From assembly GCA_016187335.1 (NCBI GenBank), contig JACPJW010000001.1, positions 704,001 through 768,000 of the forward strand: a DNA stretch of 64,000 bases. The letters run 5' to 3'. The stretch is from Candidatus Aenigmatarchaeota archaeon (GTDB taxonomy: Archaea; Aenigmatarchaeota; Aenigmatarchaeia; GW2011-AR5). The translations under genes were made by a program, and so were the position numbers. Positions 54,774 through 63,603 of the stretch are shown one piece after another (the stretch's first letter is position 1; each line of letters opens with the position of its first letter). The notes beneath the pieces are model-generated. The model ran no database searches, was not told the origin of the DNA, and was given only the letters and a program-made list of their open reading frames with translations.

Positions 54774-55007
54774 TTAATCCCTCTTTTTGAAAAGCTCGCC
54801 TATGCCCGTCTTTGAAGCGAGCTTTGTCACTATGTTCGGCTTTATCAGCACAATGCCCCAGCCGCCCATGCCTTCACCGCTGAGCACAAGCAGCTTCTCG
54901 CCTTTCTTTACACCGTAATCCTTCCGCAGCTTCGCGGGCAGCACTATCTGCCCTCGCTCGCCGACTGTCGTGCTGCCGTAGTATTCCTTCAGGACTCCTC
55001 TGACCAT
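54774..55007 (-). CDS. AbrB/MazE/SpoVT-family transcription regulator
   Basis: TVGERGQIVLPAKLRKDYGVKKGEKL. Confidence 0.9.
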   Translation of the reverse strand: MVRGVLKEYYGSTTVGERGQIVLPAKLRKDYGVKKGEKLLVLSGEGMGGWGIVLIKPNIVTKLASKTGIGELFKKRD

Positions 55008-55138
55008 AGAAACCAAAGCATTATAGGGAAGCAAAACTTTAAATCCGAATCATTCAAATCATACTTTTCATACTTTGATCCAAAATAATCCGACGCATGC
55101 AGATCAGAAGATTTTATAAATTTTGCCGAAGGCTCCGT

Positions 55139-55477
55139 CTAATGGACGGTTCCTATAAATGAAACAAATATTGTAGCTCGCTCATTAAGATCTCTTCTGT
55201 CTGTTGGTCTCATTCCACATCCATACTCTATATCAACAGAATAGCCAAAAAGAACTTTATTTGAATTATTAATTCCACAACCAACACAATTAAAACCGCA
55301 GCCATCACTAATATCTTTTTGGCTTTCTTGAAATGCTTCAACAACTCTCTTTTCTGCATAAATCTTTGTAATCCATGGAGACCAAGCTATCAAAATTAAA
55401 ACAGATAATGCAATAATTAGGATTATAATATTTGGTTCTGTAAACTCTTCGGTTGGTATTAAAGTGCCAAAAAACAA
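55139..55477 (-). CDS. Hypothetical membrane-anchored protein, AT-rich island
   Basis: TM helix followed by a CGFNCVGCG Cys cluster. Confidence 0.55.
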   Translation of the reverse strand: MFFGTLIPTEEFTEPNIIILIIALSVLILIAWSPWITKIYAEKRVVEAFQESQKDISDGCGFNCVGCGINNSNKVLFGYSVDIEYGCGMRPTDRRDLNERATIFVSFIGTVH

Positions 55478-55486
55478 TAAAAATAC

Positions 55487-56065
55487 ATGAAATCTCTGAA
55501 AATAGACGATTTAAGCCGAACAGAAGCACGAAAACTCATTATGAAACTACCGAGAAACAAGGCATTTGTTACAGATGTTCTGAAAGACAGAATAAAAATC
55601 TATTTTACAACTGATGGTGAGAAACAGAGCAAGAAAAATGGAAAAAACCTGAAAGGTCATTTTGACATAAAAATACATTTTGAAGGAGAACCTAAAAGAA
55701 AGTTCAGTTACATTAATGATATATTTATCGATTTAATCAAAAATGAGCATATCTTGAGTAAAGAAGAAAGTGAAATTTTTCTAAAAGCCCTAAAAGATTC
55801 AATAGAGCTAGTTTCCTTAAAAGAAATATACAAAAAATATCCAGAGCTGAACGAAATTGAAAAAAAGAAATCTGGTCATTCAATTGAATTCTTATTGGCA
55901 ATTCTGAAAATCCTTGCACTACAGGAAGATGTAAATTATTGGGGTATAAACCCGAAAACCAAAAAGAAATATGAAGGCAGAGAAAAACCTTATAATGCTT
56001 TGTATGATTTGCTTGTAAAGAAAATGCCTTTAACCCACGTCACAAGAAAACACATGCTCTATTAA
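55487..56065 (+). CDS. Hypothetical protein, candidate restriction endonuclease convergent on the MTase
   Basis: 192 aa; stop overlaps the MTase stop; no clear PD-(D/E)xK, HNH or GIY-YIG motif. Confidence 0.5.
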   Translation: MKSLKIDDLSRTEARKLIMKLPRNKAFVTDVLKDRIKIYFTTDGEKQSKKNGKNLKGHFDIKIHFEGEPKRKFSYINDIFIDLIKNEHILSKEESEIFLKALKDSIELVSLKEIYKKYPELNEIEKKKSGHSIEFLLAILKILALQEDVNYWGINPKTKKKYEGREKPYNALYDLLVKKMPLTHVTRKHMLY

Positions 56066-56820
56066 ACAAATACTTCTAATGGCTTGATTTTTGACAATCG
56101 CTGTTTGCCGATATCTACATATTTTGGATTTATGTCTATGCCAATTGAATTTCTGTTTAGTTCTTTAGACGCTACGCAAGTTGAAAAGCTACCAGCAAAT
56201 GGATCCAAAACTGTATCTCCTTCATTACTACTCGCCTTTATGAAGATTTTTAGCAAAGACACGGGTATTTGGCACGGATGAGGCGTTTTATCTTTGCTCA
56301 CATTCTTCACAAGGTTAAACTGAAATACATCATAGGGAGTTCTACCATTACTGCCATTTTTTAGTCTTTCCTGTATGCGTCTATCGTTTGGATTTTTGTA
56401 AGGTTCTGCTACATCTTTTCTATTGAATTTGTTATTTTTAGTTTTGGCAAAAAACAAAATAGAATGTTGTGTTCTTGTAAAATTAGATTTTGAATGACCT
56501 GTGTTGGTAGGATAGTGCCATGTCATCCATCTTTTGAAAACCATGTGTTTTTGAAGAAAAGGTAATATGTAAGCGTTGTTTTCTGGATAATTAAACAGAT
56601 ATAAACTACCATCTTTTTTCAGTAATCTCATACATTCAGTAAGCCACAATTTACACCATTCAATATACTCATCAAATTTTTTCTTGTCCTTATAAACACC
56701 GCCATAGTCTTTGCCAATATTGAAAGGCGGATCTGTTATAATCAAATCTATGGATTCAGAAGACATTTTCTTCATTATTTCTAAAGAATCTCCAACAATG
56801 CACTTATGTTCTGTTTTCAT
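56062..56820 (-). CDS. DNA methyltransferase, N4-C/N6-A, beta class
   Basis: Motif IV ITDPPF precedes HPCQIP and motif I VLDPFAGS. Confidence 0.93.
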   Translation of the reverse strand: MKTEHKCIVGDSLEIMKKMSSESIDLIITDPPFNIGKDYGGVYKDKKKFDEYIEWCKLWLTECMRLLKKDGSLYLFNYPENNAYILPFLQKHMVFKRWMTWHYPTNTGHSKSNFTRTQHSILFFAKTKNNKFNRKDVAEPYKNPNDRRIQERLKNGSNGRTPYDVFQFNLVKNVSKDKTPHPCQIPVSLLKIFIKASSNEGDTVLDPFAGSFSTCVASKELNRNSIGIDINPKYVDIGKQRLSKIKPLEVFV

Positions 56821-56829
56821 AACCACACC

Positions 56830-56964
56830 TTACTTCTTTACATAATTGGCAATAAAATCTTCAAGAACTTCGGTAGCAGTTTTCTTTTTTTCCATACACT
56901 TTATTCGGAACTTATGCCACAAATCCCCATTAACATTCAGGCTTATTTTCTTTGCCCTGTCCAT
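56830..56964 (-). CDS. 44-aa ribbon-helix-helix (CopG/ParG-like) protein, below the ORF-track cut-off
   Basis: Manual translation MDRAKKISLNVNGDLWHKFRIKCMEKKKTATEVLEDFIANYVKK; AGGTGA Shine-Dalgarno; 9 nt before the MTase ATG. Confidence 0.75.
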   Translation of the reverse strand: MDRAKKISLNVNGDLWHKFRIKCMEKKKTATEVLEDFIANYVKK

Positions 56965-57006
56965 GTAATCACCTATACTCCTATATGTATAGATACTTTT
57001 AAATAG

Positions 57007-57035
57007 TTTATCCTATATAGATATATAGGAATAAA
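57007..57035. promoter_or_regulatory. Imperfect palindrome in the divergent RHH/transposase promoter gap, a candidate operator
   Basis: TTTATCCTATATAGATATATAGGAATAAA. Confidence 0.4.
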
Positions 57036-57047
57036 GGAGATGTTGAC

Positions 57048-57950
57048 ATGAAAACTAAAACAAAACGTGGCTATAAAGACCTTTCATATTTCAAGCCAAA
57101 AGAATGTCCGTTTTGCCAAGCCAAAGAAGTAATAAAATGGGGTTTCAGATACAACCACATAACGAAGAAAAGGCGTTACAAATGCAACAAATGTAAGAAG
57201 CTCTTTGTAGTTGATGACGGCTTCTGGAAAAGGAAAAAGCAGAGAGAGTTCATAGCGCAGTGCATAGACCTTTATGTTAATGGCATGTCGCTACGCAAGG
57301 TCAAAACACACATAGAGCAGTTTTCAGAAACTACGATAAGTCATACAACTATAGCAAGATGGCTTAGGAATTATGCAATTCTTGTAAAGGATTTCACGGA
57401 TAAACTGCCGATAGAAACAAGCGGTATCTATCATGCAGATGAGATTTTTGTTAAATGCAACGGGGAAGAAAACTATTATTGGGATGTGATAGACGCACAT
57501 ACACGCTTTCTTGTGGCTACACACTATTCAGATAATAGAAACTCTCAAAATGCCAAAATTCTATTCTTGAAAGCAAAGGGCAGAGCCAATCTGCCTAACA
57601 TAATCTATACGGATGGTTGGAGAGCATATCAAAAGGCGTTCAGAAAAGTATTCTGGAATCGCTACAAAGAAAACAAAGTGGATTTCATACGCATAATCGA
57701 AAAAGAGGACACAAGAAACAACATAGTGGAAAGGATACAGGGAACTATCAGAGAAAGGATTAAGGTCATGCGTGGATTCAAAAATCCAGAATCCGCTAAG
57801 GCACTTCTTGACTTGCTGATAGTTTACTACAATTTTATCCGAATACATCAAGGCATACGAATGACGCCTGCGGAGATGTGTGGAGTAAATCTTAATCTTG
57901 GACAGAATAAGTGGTTGGGATTGATTTATAGAAGTAAAAACAAGTTCTAA
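57048..57950 (+). mobile_element. DDE transposase, IS6/IS1-like archaeal type with an N-terminal Zn ribbon; no terminal repeats found
   Basis: CPFC...CNKC, GMSLRKV, YHADEIFVK, IYTDGWRAY, NNIVERIQGTIRER. Confidence 0.85.
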
Positions 57951-58843
57951 GCTTTTGGTGGCAAATTATTTAAGATTCCTGAATCTACAGGTGTTGCTAT
58001 TCCTACTCCACTCTGTATGTTTTGATTCATAGCATTAATTATATTATTTTGAGTTTGGAGCACTAATTGAAATTCATAAGATATGTTACTTGGAATATTT
58101 GCTGTTTGTATACCTGCAAGATTTTCTCGTCCATTAATAATTCCTATGACTTTTCCACTATTCACTAAAAATACAGGACTTCCACTATTCCCACTATTTA
58201 CAAAGGAATTTACTGTTATAGTCGGTTTGTTGTTTCTAAGACCTTTGAACGATATTATTCCTTCATGTGTTACTTGTGCTGATGAAAAAAATGGATAACC
58301 TATAAATGCTACATTTGAACCTACATCATAAGAATCACTTGTGCCTAATTCTACAGGTGTAAGATTATAATTAACTTTTATTATTGCCATATCCAAGTCT
58401 TCATTTCCAAAAAATATATTTGAAGTAATAATTTGAGCAGATAATTTTGTTGAATTGCTTAAAACAACAAGAATTGTAGGAGAATTTTCTATTACATGTT
58501 TTGCTGTTAATATGTAACCATCAGAACGGATTACAAATCCTGCTCCACCACTTCCCCATACATTACCATTATTATCAACATATAATTCTGTTGTCTGAAT
58601 AAAATTAGCTTTATTAGAAGGAGTAATAGGAACTAAAATTTCAACTACAGAATCACGAAGAGTGTATATAGTCTGCGTTAATCCCTTATTATCGTAAAGT
58701 TGGTCAATTTTATAATTTATGTTAGAAAGTTGTTGAGTCAGATTTACATTAGAAGTACTAATTTGTTGGCTTAATCCAAAACCCACAACACCAACAACAA
58801 CAATCGTAATTATGGTAGAGATGACGAGCATCTTCTTGTCCAT
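57947..58843 (-). CDS. Membrane-anchored trypsin-like serine protease without PDZ
   Basis: LTAKHV, DMAIIK, GNSGSP catalytic triad; N-terminal TM. Confidence 0.88.
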   Translation of the reverse strand: MDKKMLVISTIITIVVVGVVGFGLSQQISTSNVNLTQQLSNINYKIDQLYDNKGLTQTIYTLRDSVVEILVPITPSNKANFIQTTELYVDNNGNVWGSGGAGFVIRSDGYILTAKHVIENSPTILVVLSNSTKLSAQIITSNIFFGNEDLDMAIIKVNYNLTPVELGTSDSYDVGSNVAFIGYPFFSSAQVTHEGIISFKGLRNNKPTITVNSFVNSGNSGSPVFLVNSGKVIGIINGRENLAGIQTANIPSNISYEFQLVLQTQNNIINAMNQNIQSGVGIATPVDSGILNNLPPKA

Positions 58844-59055
58844 GTCTAAATCTTGATTTTTGCGATATTTAAACTCTGTAAAAAACCTTTTTGGCAACAT
58901 TTTTTATCGCCTTTTAAAAAGGTGGACAATTAAATACCAACCGAAGACGTTACAGAACCTAATATTTTTTATTTTCATAAACTACAATAACACATTATCA
59001 TGTAAAATCTTTTTAAGCCCTGAAATTTTATTATTCAAATAGGTTGGCAAGATTT

Positions 59056-59457
59056 TTACCAGTTGCATTTTCTGTTTATTCCATCACAAAAATAAGTTAG
59101 GCCGTCAAATGTTATATTCTCTTGGTTTTGACACATTATTTTAACATTTTCATCATTACAGGGATAGTTACAACCAATCTCTCTACTTTCAAAATTTTCT
59201 GTTTCAGTATAAGGTACTCCGAAGCATCTCTTTTCTCCAGTAGGAATACCAAAACAAATATCACTATAACCACAATCTGAACAATTTGTGTGTATGAATC
59301 TATACTTCATTCCAAAACAAGACTGTTCATAATAATGTAAACCATGGGGAGGACACACAGGACCACATAAAATACCTCCAATATTTCTTGGAAAGAAGAA
59401 TCCTATTAAAGCGATTATAATGATTCCAATTATCAAAAGCAAATATTTTCCATGCAT
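59056..59457 (-). CDS. Small Cys-rich exported protein
   Basis: Signal/TM segment followed by about 11 Cys. Confidence 0.6.
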   Translation of the reverse strand: MHGKYLLLIIGIIIIALIGFFFPRNIGGILCGPVCPPHGLHYYEQSCFGMKYRFIHTNCSDCGYSDICFGIPTGEKRCFGVPYTETENFESREIGCNYPCNDENVKIMCQNQENITFDGLTYFCDGINRKCNW

Positions 59458-59737
59458 AAATAACAGTAGAATTGAGCTTTATTTAAACATATTGAAAACT
59501 TTTGGTTTTCGCCTAATAGAGAGCTGGATCTCGGTTGGACTTAACAAACATTATGAGAACTTTCAAGAATTTAGGTCGAGAGCCTGCAAGGCTCGAGCCG
59601 TATAAGCCCTGTTAAGTGAGGCGAGGACGAAGTCCGAGAGTGCAAAGCCCCAAGGATTTACAAAGTAAATCCGCAGAGTTATTTTAGTGGTGCAAATCAA
59701 TAAAGGTTTATATATCGGTGTATTCTTCTACTATATA

Positions 59738-61063
59738 ATGAAAAAAGACTGCATTTTGAGTGGATTAATAGGTTTATGTGTAGGGGATGCTTTAGGTGTA
59801 CCTGTAGAATTTAAGAGCAGAGATGAATTAAGTAAAAATCCTGTTGAAAGTATGATTGGAAATGGAACATACAATCAACTTGCCGGAACGTGGTCTGATG
59901 ACAGTTCTTTAACATTTTGTTTAGCAGAAAGTCTATGTACAGGATATGATTTAAATGATTTAAGTCTTAAATTTTGTAGATGGTTAAACGAAGGTTATTG
60001 GACACCATATGGAAAGGTATTTGATGTTGGGATAAGTACCAAAAAAGCCATTCAAAATTTATGTAATGGTAAAGAACCTACAAGATCAGGAGGAAATAAG
60101 GAACAAGATAATGGTAATGGCTCCTTGATGAGGATACTCCCTATTGCATTTTTTACAAATGATATGTATGTTAGCACTATGGTAAAGGTGGTTGAAGAAG
60201 TATCTTCTTTGACACATAGACATAATAGATCAATAATTGCTTGCTCTGCCTATGTTTTTATTGCTAATAATATAATAAGAGGAAAAAACAAAAAAGAAGC
60301 TTTTAGATTATTAAGATTAAATCTTCCGTTTTTATTTAGTAAAGAAAAGGGTGAAGAATATAACAATGAGTTAAAGCATTTCAAAAGAATATTAGATAAG
60401 GATTTCTTTAATTTACCTGCAGAAAAAATTAATTCTTCAGGTTACGTTATTGACACTTTAGAAGCTGCTTTTTGGTGTTTTATGAATAATGATAATTATA
60501 AAGACACTGTTCTTTCTGCAGTAAATTTAGGGGAAGATACAGATACTGTTGCTGCAATAGCTGGGGGATTAGCAGGGATATATTATGGAATAAATAACAT
60601 CCCAAAAGAATGGATTGACGCAATAGCAAGAAAGAAAGAAATTATCTATTTAGCAAAAAAACTTGATGAATCTCTTAAAAAAAGATGGTCGTATATTGGT
60701 TTCGAACTATTGGATAGAATAAATATTAAAAAACCATCTAAACATATTATCAAACAAAACTATGAAAAATATATCAAGGATTGTGAAAATGAAGTAAGAG
60801 GTGTTTTGCAGTTTTCAGCTTATTCTTTTGGATATCCAGAATCAGATCATGCGGTTGTCGATGCTGGGGAAGTAAATAGACAGGTTTGGAGATATTATCA
60901 TGCTAACAAAAAATTCGATATCTTTTCATTAGGACATTTATGCACTGCAGTTTTTTTTATTTCAAGAGCAAGGCATCACCAAGGGAGTTATCCTAAGAAA
61001 CCAGAAGAAGGAGAAGTTGCTATTTCTAAAGAGATTGTTAGAAGAATACATCAATTACTATAA
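59738..61063 (+). CDS. ADP-ribosylglycohydrolase (ARH/DraG family) with a C-terminal extension
   Basis: VGDALG, WSDDS, GNGSLMR, THRH, GEDTDTVAAIAG; about 120 extra C-terminal residues. Confidence 0.92.
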   Translation: MKKDCILSGLIGLCVGDALGVPVEFKSRDELSKNPVESMIGNGTYNQLAGTWSDDSSLTFCLAESLCTGYDLNDLSLKFCRWLNEGYWTPYGKVFDVGISTKKAIQNLCNGKEPTRSGGNKEQDNGNGSLMRILPIAFFTNDMYVSTMVKVVEEVSSLTHRHNRSIIACSAYVFIANNIIRGKNKKEAFRLLRLNLPFLFSKEKGEEYNNELKHFKRILDKDFFNLPAEKINSSGYVIDTLEAAFWCFMNNDNYKDTVLSAVNLGEDTDTVAAIAGGLAGIYYGINNIPKEWIDAIARKKEIIYLAKKLDESLKKRWSYIGFELLDRINIKKPSKHIIKQNYEKYIKDCENEVRGVLQFSAYSFGYPESDHAVVDAGEVNRQVWRYYHANKKFDIFSLGHLCTAVFFISRARHHQGSYPKKPEEGEVAISKEIVRRIHQLL

Positions 61064-61175
61064 TAAAATATAGCACCACTAAAATAATTTCACTTAACAA
61101 CTATTAAGCGAACTCTTAAGAATTTTCGCTCGCAAAAGCTTGTAGTGCTGTTTTGTGAACAATTGAAACAGCAGC

Positions 61176-62674
61176 CTACCCTTTCACATTCCCTATCGGC
61201 ACGAGCTTGCAGACCTTCTTTGAAAGCCCTGCCGTATGAACCACTTCTATCACTTCGTCAATGTCCTTGTAAGCGCCGCCTGCTTCCTCGGCTAAGCCTG
61301 CAAACGAAACAGTTTTTACTAAAATCCCTTTCTTTTCCATGTCCCTTTGCAGTTTATCGCCGCGCCACATCTGCCTTGCGCGCGTCCTGCTCATTGTCCT
61401 GCCTGAGCCGTGGCACGTGGAGCAGAACGTTTCCGCAGCCTTATCGCCGCCGACAAGCAGGTACGAGCCCGTTTCCATTGAGCCTCCGATGATCACCGGC
61501 GAGCCGTCGTTCCTGTACATTTCCGGTATTTCCTCGCGGCCTGCGGGATAGCTGCCTGTCGCACCCTTCCTATGGACTAAAACCTCTTTTGTCTGGCCGT
61601 CTACTTTGTGCTTCTCCAGGGATGCCCGGTTGTGAGCGACGTCGAATACCATGTGCATGTCCATGTCCTCGGCGCTGCGCTTGAATACGGAAGAAAACAC
61701 CTCGCGGACGCGGTGCAAAATAACTTGCCTGTTCGCGAAGGACATGTTTACCGCGCATTTCATAGCAGTGAAATAGTCCTGTCCCTCTGGCGAGTTGAAA
61801 GGCGCGCACGCAAGCTCGCGGTCAAGAATCTTTATTTTATATTTCCTTTCCATGACGTTGAGAAATGACTGAAGGTAATCCGTAGCAACCTGGTGCCCGA
61901 AGCCGCGCGAGCCGCAATGGAACATGATTACAATTTGCCCTGGGAACAAGCCCCATTTCTTCGCAAGCTCTTTGTTGTGTATATTTTCTTCCTTTACCCA
62001 CTGGACTTCAAGATAATGATTTCCCGAGCCGAGCGTGCCTATCTGGTTGAAGCCGCGCTCTACTGACCTGCTGCTTATTTTTCTTGAATCCGCGCCTTCC
62101 ATCCTGCCGTTCAGTTCGCAGCGCTTCAGGTCTTCTTTCCATCCGTAATCATGCTCAACGCACCATTCCGCGCCTTCCTCAACGACCTTGCGGAACTCGT
62201 CCTTCGTTAATTTAACAAATCCTGTCGAGCCTACGCCTGCAGGCACCCTTTTGAAAAGCATGTCTACAAGCTCTTTCAGCTTGGGCTTCACGTCGTTTAT
62301 AGTAAGGTTTGTAGTAACCAGTCTCATCCCGCAGTTCACGTCGAATCCGATTCCGCCAGGAGATATAACTCCTTCGTTAGCATCAAAAGCAGCAACTCCG
62401 CCGATTGGGAATCCGTAGCCCGATTTGCCTCTCTTCAGATACCTGAAAAGATATGACCGTCAGGCATACAGAACGCGTGATTGATAATTCCGGGAAGCGT
62501 TGCGACGTTCGCTATCTGGTCGAAAACCATCAGGTCCATATCGTCAATGAGCTTTTTCGACGCGTACATCCGCGCAGGGACCTTCATACCCTGCTTGAAT
62601 GAAGTAGGTATCTCCCAGATTACGTCGCTGATTTTTTTCAGTTCCGGTTTTTTCAAATTTGTCCCCCAAACCAT
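61176..62674 (-). CDS. rtcB: RNA-splicing ligase RtcB; exons 62453-62674 and 61176-62423, 489 aa after splicing
   Basis: Exon 1 ends VATLPG...MPDGH; exon 2 starts SGYGFPIGGVAAFD...FDVNCG and has GSGNH, HCGSR, HN, HRKGA, STCHGSGR; GGAGGTGA Shine-Dalgarno. Confidence 0.92.
62424..62452 (-). other. 29-nt BHB-like intron in rtcB
   Basis: ATCTTTTCAGGTATCTGAAGAGAGGCAAA; frameshifts and contains an in-frame TGA; 9-bp inner stem with 3-nt bulges; removal restores MPDGH-SGYGFP. Confidence 0.85.
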
Positions 62675-63513
62675 TAATTCACCTCCTCTAATTTTGAAAA
62701 TTGGTTTTCTTTTATAGTTAAACAATAGTATAAACTTCCCCAGTTATTTTCCCATGGTCCTAATATTTTTGATTTAATTCCAATTGAGTTTAATCTATTC
62801 CTTAGCTCATTAAGATTTCTTTTTATAATCGAATTCATTCTGATTTCCTTTCTTTTAATACTTAACCTACCATTTTCTCTTATGAATTTTATTATTTCGG
62901 CTTTTTCTTTTGGTAATGTCCATTCATACGACTGATAGGAATTTAAGGCTTCTTCTAATTTTTCTTTTTTACGTGGATGAAGAAACCCTATGTACTTTTC
63001 AAACTTAAGCAAATCATCCTTACCACATATAGTAAGCGACCATATGTTTCTATTTTTTCTTTTCTTGATTGTAGAAGTAATTTTGAAATGTCTTTTCATG
63101 ACTTTTTTGATTTGGTAAAGACCTTTCTTATTTATTGAATCTAGGCCAATTTTCCTGTCCTTTGCTTTGACAACAGAGACCCATCCATCACAATCAAAAT
63201 ACGATCTTAACCAACTAGAAAGTAAATTTTTGGATAATTTCGGCAAAGACCATTTATCTGAATAATAAGTGAAATTTTTTGTTAAAATAAAGAAAAGATT
63301 TTTATTTTGAATTTTGCATCTTTCTTCTGTTAAGACTGGTCTTATTCCAAATTTTCTGTGAAATTTTTCTTGAAAATCTTTCAACAAAGTAAGATTTGTA
63401 TTTCTTAAACCAATATAGTAGTATTTGTGCTTCTGTGATTTAGGATTTGTAATTACGTAACCATCAGCACAAAGATAGCCATGTATAGAAGCAAGATTTT
63501 TGTTGAATTTCAT
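62674..63513 (-). CDS. Free-standing two-motif LAGLIDADG endonuclease-like protein
   Basis: ASIHGYLCADG and SWLRSYFDCDGWV; no Hint splicing motifs; TAATG overlap with the rtcB start; very AT-rich. Confidence 0.85.
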   Translation of the reverse strand: MKFNKNLASIHGYLCADGYVITNPKSQKHKYYYIGLRNTNLTLLKDFQEKFHRKFGIRPVLTEERCKIQNKNLFFILTKNFTYYSDKWSLPKLSKNLLSSWLRSYFDCDGWVSVVKAKDRKIGLDSINKKGLYQIKKVMKRHFKITSTIKKRKNRNIWSLTICGKDDLLKFEKYIGFLHPRKKEKLEEALNSYQSYEWTLPKEKAEIIKFIRENGRLSIKRKEIRMNSIIKRNLNELRNRLNSIGIKSKILGPWENNWGSLYYCLTIKENQFSKLEEVN

Positions 63514-63603
63514 CTTGATAATTATGTTGCCATTTATTTAAACCTAATGTTCGTTAGTCAAATTTTTCTAAAGATATAAATTAATTTGTTAGAAAAAAGC
63601 GTT

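Follow-up and report, generated by a model that had tools for sequence, protein, structure and literature searches.

The free-standing endonuclease F-CphI of cyanophage S-PM2 is encoded next to an intron-containing psbA gene, an arrangement described as collaborative homing (Zeng, Bonocora and Shub 2009, as described in PMC6083498 and PMC10448857). In phage T4, the seg and mob endonucleases carry out intronless homing (PMC2988022), and fungal mitochondrial mORFs import a foreign gene end, as in Allomyces atp6 and in Glomus (PMC3630166). Among archaea, the cbf5 pre-mRNA of Crenarchaeota contains a BHB intron of 16-44 nt that is vertically inherited and whose splicing has been shown; its authors note that it is too short to code for a nuclease (PMC2738675). 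Within the literature that could be searched, cbf5 is essentially the one proven case of a BHB intron in a protein gene, and we found, in what was mostly non-subscription literature, no description of rtcB or DPANN BHB introns accompanied by free-standing endonucleases.

We analyzed a 64,000-nucleotide stretch of DNA (the window) from an Aenigmatarchaeota MAG, a small groundwater archaeon with a 1.01-Mb genome (47% GC), in which a free-standing LAGLIDADG endonuclease gene precedes an rtcB gene carrying a predicted BHB intron. Short archaeal BHB introns encode no nuclease, and this locus would provide a concrete route for their spread at the DNA level, with a named enzyme and a predicted target. 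The reading developed below, if correct, would also extend collaborative homing from phages to cellular chromosomes and account for why rtcB has not descended vertically in DPANN archaea.

As with F-CphI and psbA, a free-standing endonuclease neighbors a conserved gene with an ORF-less intron that would prevent self-cleavage, and joint spread of the two is possible. The two systems differ in that the rtcB pair lies on a cellular archaeal chromosome, whereas F-CphI belongs to a phage; in the intron, which is a protein-spliced BHB element of 14-36 nt in rtcB and a self-splicing group I intron in psbA; in the enzyme, LAGLIDADG for rtcB (with cleavage presumed) and Endo VII for F-CphI; and in the interchangeable intron positions and the intron-less, altered-codon alleles of the rtcB family. 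Intron-blocked cleavage is the defining criterion of collaborative homing, and we do not file the rtcB locus as a proven case. The T4 seg and mob systems share with it a cut site hundreds of bases from the endonuclease gene (a presumed one here), co-conversion of flanking alleles and a patchy distribution, and the intron-less, motif-altered rtcB loci fit their pattern. Unlike in T4, however, most members of the rtcB family seem to rely on an intron for immunity, and transfer spans families and phyla although the far flank is without homology. With the fungal mORFs the locus shares an endonuclease ORF that comes with a replacement gene part and leaves the native part duplicated (see the stubs at L185, L302, L207 and L290, below), but in rtcB it is the 5' rather than the 3' end that is replaced, an intron is brought along, and the window genome contains no stub. 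Finally, both cbf5 and rtcB are conserved protein genes with a short BHB intron; the rtcB introns, in contrast, are patchy, occupy several sites, interrupt the ligase of the splicing pathway itself, and are linked to a separate nuclease gene.

Structure of the rtcB locus

All features of the locus lie on the reverse strand. The endonuclease gene (62674..63513) is intact and encodes 279 residues with two PF14528 (LAGLIDADG_3) stretches (Pfam, E 1e-25). It has its own start and stop, and Pfam gave no match to a Hint/intein domain in it. Its GC content is 28% (GC3 25%), whereas rtcB exon 2 has 52% (GC3 61%) and the genome as a whole 47%; the window rtcB is thus host-like in composition and the nuclease gene is not. 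The two genes meet in a TAATG overlap (62672..62676), in which the nuclease stop TAA occupies 62676-62674 and the rtcB ATG 62674-62672, and the last nuclease codons contain a Shine-Dalgarno-like GGAGGTGA for rtcB (62679..62686). Exon 1 of rtcB (62453..62674) has 74 codons, the final one being the His of MPDGH. It is followed, at the site that we call His+0, by a predicted 29-nt BHB-type mini-intron (62424..62452) that shifts the frame and has a stop inside, and then by exon 2 (61176..62423; PF01139, E 2e-156). Excision of 62452-62424 restores MPDGH|SGYG and an RtcB of 489 residues. The initial annotation, made from the sequence alone, had described an AT-rich, two-motif LAGLIDADG ORF free of an intein domain, its TAATG overlap with rtcB, and a 29-nt intron about 220 bp from the rtcB start; all of this was borne out, the intron beginning 222 nt past the ATG. 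The intron splits a putative nuclease target, the P-D-x-H-x-G-Y-G-F-P codons (62406..62464), to which intron positions in relatives (His+0 to +13), motif changes in intron-less neighbors and the ends of recombination scars all point.

The intron region folds as a BHB with 3-nt bulges, a central helix in which three of four pairs form, with an outer G.A pair, and a 9-bp intron stem (z = -5.7; 0 of 200 shuffles were equally stable). It is a BHB of the relaxed type, with three of four pairs, and both frame-restoring junctions fall in the 3-nt bulges. Alternative frame-restoring boundaries were rejected, as only 62452-62424 places both junctions in bulges. Relatives with an intron at the same site have lengths of 21-36 nt, and across all relatives the lengths range from 14 to 36 nt, in frame and out of frame. 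That the central helix changes along with the exon sequence across relatives argues that these are real BHB introns. The window genome encodes EndA, and most of its predicted tRNAs contain introns. We infer that the 29-nt insert is a BHB mini-intron spliced by the host; introns of this kind would show that many rtcB genes taken as "split" or "frameshifted" are intron-bearing.

The whole stretch was assembled identically in two independent DNA runs (which may be source samples). Among the DNA contigs we saw no strain variants without the nuclease or without the intron, an uninformative result given two shallow runs with partial cover. A promoter scan of the region gave counts at chance level, the consensus being bacterial and the host an archaeon.

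The endonuclease protein

The AF2 model of the 279-residue protein has a pLDDT of 95. Residues 3-195 adopt an alpha-beta-beta-alpha-beta-beta-alpha arrangement with two LAGLIDADG helices, and match PI-PfuI (Z 19.7, rmsd 3.0, 187 residues aligned), the TliVMA intein endonuclease (Z 19.2) and I-DmoI (Z 17); matches to WhiA are weaker (Z 13.6-16). The protein thus resembles these three enzymes (PDB 1dq3, 7qsu, 2vs8) in its two-domain monomeric LAGLIDADG fold and in having both catalytic acids, and differs from them in lacking a splicing domain, in being encoded outside introns and in having an extra, third LAGLIDADG-fold domain. The latter (about residues 196-279; 62677..62928) was recognized from the predicted fold of the isolated domain: residues 194-279, folded alone, give a LAGLIDADG-type domain (pLDDT 90) whose best matches are the second domains of TliVMA (Z 10.0) and I-DmoI (Z 8.4). 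We had considered this C-terminal part as a PI-PfuI "stirrup", but rejected that assignment because the isolated fold matches LAGLIDADG domains. Two of the three domains have the catalytic motif; the helix of the third has no conserved acidic residue. Such a compact three-domain LAGLIDADG enzyme would be a new scaffold. Family members of about 193-204 residues exist that lack the third domain. The members at six loci (L045, L060, L046, L218, L219 and L235) match only the first 175-204 residues and apparently lack it, yet flank intron-bearing rtcB genes (L060 is cut by a contig end).

The catalytic residues are Asp17 (63465-63463) and Asp107 (63195-63193), together with Lys71, whose position is Lys or Arg across the family. 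Both Asp residues are invariant in a 64-protein alignment and present in 144 of 144 family loci, although D17 belonged to the search pattern by which loci were found; D107 was not in the pattern of those searches. Between close pairs of nucleases, dN/dS is 0.07-0.23. Purifying selection of this kind is compatible with both a nuclease and a regulator; they are told apart here by the active site and by the lack of a helix-turn-helix domain.

Distribution of the family and its tie to rtcB

The protein collection contained 438 homologues of the nuclease, and genomes and metagenomes together yielded 145 non-redundant loci. The nuclease gene stands next to the rtcB 5' end in 135 of these, in tandem (head-to-tail) in 116 and divergently in 19. 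One of the other ten lies 1.9 kb from rtcB, and in nine the contig ends no more than 500 bp away on one side, leaving no informative counterexample to rtcB adjacency among the 145. The gene on the far side of the nuclease varies, and the upstream flank is not conserved. The nuclease gene has a lower GC content than rtcB in each of the 95 loci measured.

Within Aenigmatarchaeota, 13 of 371 genomes (3.5%, in four families) have the nuclease, and one more retains a remnant interrupted by seven stops; the gene was absent from all 130 Nanoarchaeia genomes sampled (both sets consisting of incomplete MAGs). Congeners provide filled and empty sites (G170 versus G172, G185 versus G184, G194 versus G198), and decayed copies with stops or frameshifts occur. 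No relative was found on viral contigs with the patterns used. The family is an optional mobile gene at a fixed place beside rtcB.

Association with introns

The intron site was scored, blind to the presence of the nuclease, in about 315 Aenigmatarchaeota genomes, about 16% of which carry an rtcB intron. All 13 genomes with the nuclease have a BHB intron, at +0, +7, +9 or +13 from the His codon, compared with 37 of about 302 nuclease-free genomes (about 12%) with an intron in the same region; three of these 37 have too little upstream sequence for a nuclease to be excluded. The Fisher p value of 1e-11 is overstated, since kin are not independent; within the same genera, the intron is present in 7 of 7 genomes with the nuclease and 4 of 16 without. 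No intron is present in the genome that retains the decayed remnant. Most intron-bearing rtcB genes lack the nuclease, and near-identical introns occur in its absence (G173, G184, G136, G197). Clustering of the ORFs upstream of intron-bearing, nuclease-free rtcB genes revealed no other recurrent nuclease family. Because the window genome is intron-rich, nuclease and intron could also be jointly favored by the same hosts.

Of the 120 family loci scored, 90 contain an intron (at +0, +2, +7, +9 or +13), including 82 of the 89 whose nuclease is at least 50% identical to that of the window and 8 of the 31 more distant ones. Inspection of additional loci by eye yielded five more introns, five more altered motifs and a third intron-less allele with the usual motif. 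Close nucleases pair with introns at different positions within one 14-nt window (L185/L302, L200/L201); L267 and L185 share nuclease, exon 1 and intron site, with exon 2 saturated. The pairing of nuclease and intron is therefore loose, being neither obligate nor specific to one intron position.

These results support only in part the initial annotation, which had proposed that the endonuclease cuts intron-less rtcB alleles, with the 29-nt intron protecting its own. The expected co-occurrence holds for the 13 nuclease genomes against about 12% of the others, but not for the 30 of 120 family loci that are intron-less. A dedicated partnership with this particular intron is not supported, given that near-identical nucleases accompany other intron positions and that most intron-bearing rtcB genes are nuclease-free. 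The annotation had also named an endonuclease beside intron-less rtcB as evidence against its proposal, and this is what the 30 loci show, 28 of them with an altered motif.

Intron-less alleles

Only 2 of the 30 intron-less family loci keep P-D-x-H-x-G-Y-G-F-P, while 28 are altered; Nanoarchaeia without the nuclease keep the motif in 47 of 94 cases, and intron alleles, once spliced, in 79 of 90 (p 1e-5). This pattern of the "usual motif" was chosen after looking at the data, and a looser one gives 13 of 30 versus 56 of 94 (p 0.14), no different from background. Because the pattern is post hoc, the looser one gives a null result and about 20 of the 30 loci form one nuclease clade, codon substitution as a second route to immunity is suggestive only. 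In L189/L279, L236 and L252, an intact nuclease lies beside an intron-less rtcB with the usual motif; these exceptions run against the proposed immunity. The rtcB genes of L189 and L236 carry a DIN|C intein.

Traces of allele movement

In four clear cases (L185/L271, L302, L207 and L290) a truncated second rtcB exon 1 lies upstream of the nuclease, 71-79% identical in nucleotides to the working exon 1; there are three weaker cases besides. The longest stubs stop at about His+7 and His+2, and none crosses the intron window. At L185, three unrelated genes separate stub and nuclease. Such stubs would be expected to remain if the DNA broke at the H-x-G-Y codons, was resected leftwards and was then repaired from a donor cassette. 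A genome search found no orphan rtcB 5' end elsewhere in the window genome.

Movement is also visible in the history of the window rtcB. Compared with genomes of its own family, the window genome has an EF-2 identity of 70-78% and an rtcB exon 2 identity of 55-71%; compared with intron-A genomes of three other families, these values are 58-67% for EF-2 and 74-80% for rtcB. The gene falls in a 100/100 clade with those intron-A alleles, an AU test rejects placing it with four genomes of its own family (p 1e-4), and in a wider rtcB tree three Micrarchaeota nuclease loci join the clade. The window rtcB is thus xenologous, grouping with other families and phyla and not with its own family. In the congeners G151 and G152, EF-2 is 84% identical but the rtcB alleles share only 46% identity, and both loci have a nuclease and an intron of their own. 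Distances between nucleases correlate with those between rtcB genes (Mantel, 0.51 for exon 2 and 0.56 for exon 1), but the rtcB tree reproduces only 12 of the 35 supported splits of the nuclease tree. Since the flank upstream of the nuclease is not conserved, two-sided homing would work only between close kin. Some MAG contigs bear labels, such as Methanosarcinales, Syntrophoarchaeum and Omnitrophica, that may be misassignments, and we left these out as evidence of transfer beyond DPANN.

Four genomes of four genera (G184, G136, G201 and G194; loci L095, L117, L128 and L049) have rtcB exon 2 sequences that are 92-97% identical, against 85-89% for EF-2, possibly a recent sweep. The same 18-nt intron is found in G194, G197 and G136.

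Proposed mechanism and alternatives

We consider it probable that the window encodes an active, free-standing homing endonuclease that targets the rtcB H-x-G-Y-G-F-P codons and brings with it a replacement, immune rtcB 5' end. On entering a cell with an unprotected rtcB, the nuclease would cut at these codons, and the break would be repaired from donor DNA, with homology guiding the exon-2 side and, on the far side, homology again or else illegitimate joining. The recipient would thereby acquire the nuclease gene, a new rtcB 5' end (or the whole gene) and the donor's immunity determinant, with the old 5' end sometimes left as a stub such as those seen in relatives. The main source of immunity would be a BHB mini-intron, spliced out by the host, which can interrupt the target at several positions; some lineages would owe their immunity to changed target codons. 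Any interruption of the target should suffice, and the different positions that near-identical nucleases pair with in the 14-nt window are as expected for this. The intron would hitchhike, and could persist after decay of the nuclease; it would be excised by host EndA, the exons being joined, if the known pathway applies, by RtcB itself.

It is unlikely, though worth weighing, that the nuclease is mobile and tied to rtcB but cuts elsewhere in or near the gene, the introns being passengers on travelling alleles that offer no protection. The introns of the 37 nuclease-free genomes, the further intron sites near GFD, the movement of whole rtcB alleles between lineages and the three intron-less alleles with the usual motif beside intact nucleases would all be at home in such an account. 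Against it stand the 13 of 13 association, which also holds within genera (7 of 7 versus 4 of 16), the differing intron positions within the same 14 nt beside near-identical nucleases (L185/L302, L200/L201), and scars that end at or before the intron window.

Still less probable, in our judgment, is that the introns were selected as shields against the rtcB intein endonucleases (at GYGF|C and DIN|C), the free-standing gene being an escaped or hitchhiking intein nuclease. Both intron clusters adjoin intein sites, five genomes have an intein inserted 15 nt away from the His codon, and the nearest solved structures are intein endonucleases. On the other hand, the GYGF intein nucleases score no more than 14-15 bits with the family profile, introns and inteins occur close together in G200, G230 and G306, and shielding leaves unexplained why the free-standing gene predicts the intron. 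As an origin of some introns, shielding can be reconciled with the homing endonuclease that we prefer. We give the least credence to a domesticated DNA- or RNA-binding protein, either an intron maturase or the WhiA-like rtcB regulator that the initial annotation had named as its alternative. WhiA carries a C-terminal helix-turn-helix domain. In favor of such a protein, the gene keeps its place at the rtcB 5' end, is translationally coupled and is under strong purifying selection, and WhiA is among the fold matches (Z 13.6-16); but the invariance of both catalytic Asp residues and a C-terminus that is a third LAGLIDADG fold rather than the WhiA helix-turn-helix make it unlikely. Nor did we see the vertical conservation that the annotation had said would favor it: the gene is patchy (13 of 371 genomes, 3.5% of the phylum), with decayed copies, empty sites in congeners and a GC content that has not ameliorated, and near-identical introns occur without it (G173, G184, G136, G197).

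A wider extension of the homing reading is offered tentatively, with more doubt than confidence: free-standing LAGLIDADG nucleases might be what generally drives ORF-less BHB introns to spread among archaea. The window family would then cause the essential rtcB to be replaced across families and phyla of DPANN, select for whatever mini-intron or codon change destroys its target, and read an unusually long site of about 30 bp by means of its third domain.

Additional inserts and mobile elements

A GYGF|C intein lies inside the presumed target, 15 nt from the His codon, at L096, L097, L098, L100 and L101 (G166, G172, G206, G218 and G219), and its endonuclease is only distantly related to the free-standing family. 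A second cluster of short rtcB inserts is found near GG-I-G-F-D, just before the DIN|C intein site (L080, L081, L086, L091, L103, L105, L107, L109, L035, L038 and L133); several of these genes have two mini-introns, and some also an intein. EF-2 matches with in-frame stops at L166, L173 and L174 (G136, G126 and G198) may represent further mRNA mini-introns. At L120 (G235), rtcB exon 1 apparently lacks about codons 24-55, through either gene decay or an assembly fault.

The window genome contains three other non-intein LAGLIDADG ORFs (G000:C2:208883-209722, 212389-213177 and 241115-241726). These are unrelated to rtcB; their surroundings resemble rRNA genes, and they are probably rRNA-intron endonucleases. 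Upstream of the nuclease, between 63604 and 63910, the window contains tiny Lys/Ala/Arg-rich ORFs, including one of 51 residues without a Pfam match; host-level GC resumes here, which places the start of the AT-rich element near 63600. Directly downstream of rtcB, positions 55000-61100 form an AT-rich island with a DNA methylase, a convergent 192-residue ORF of no assigned function, an IS6-like transposase, a 458-residue ADP-ribosylglycohydrolase with a C-terminal extension and, judged by motif, a product that we take to be a trypsin-like protease.
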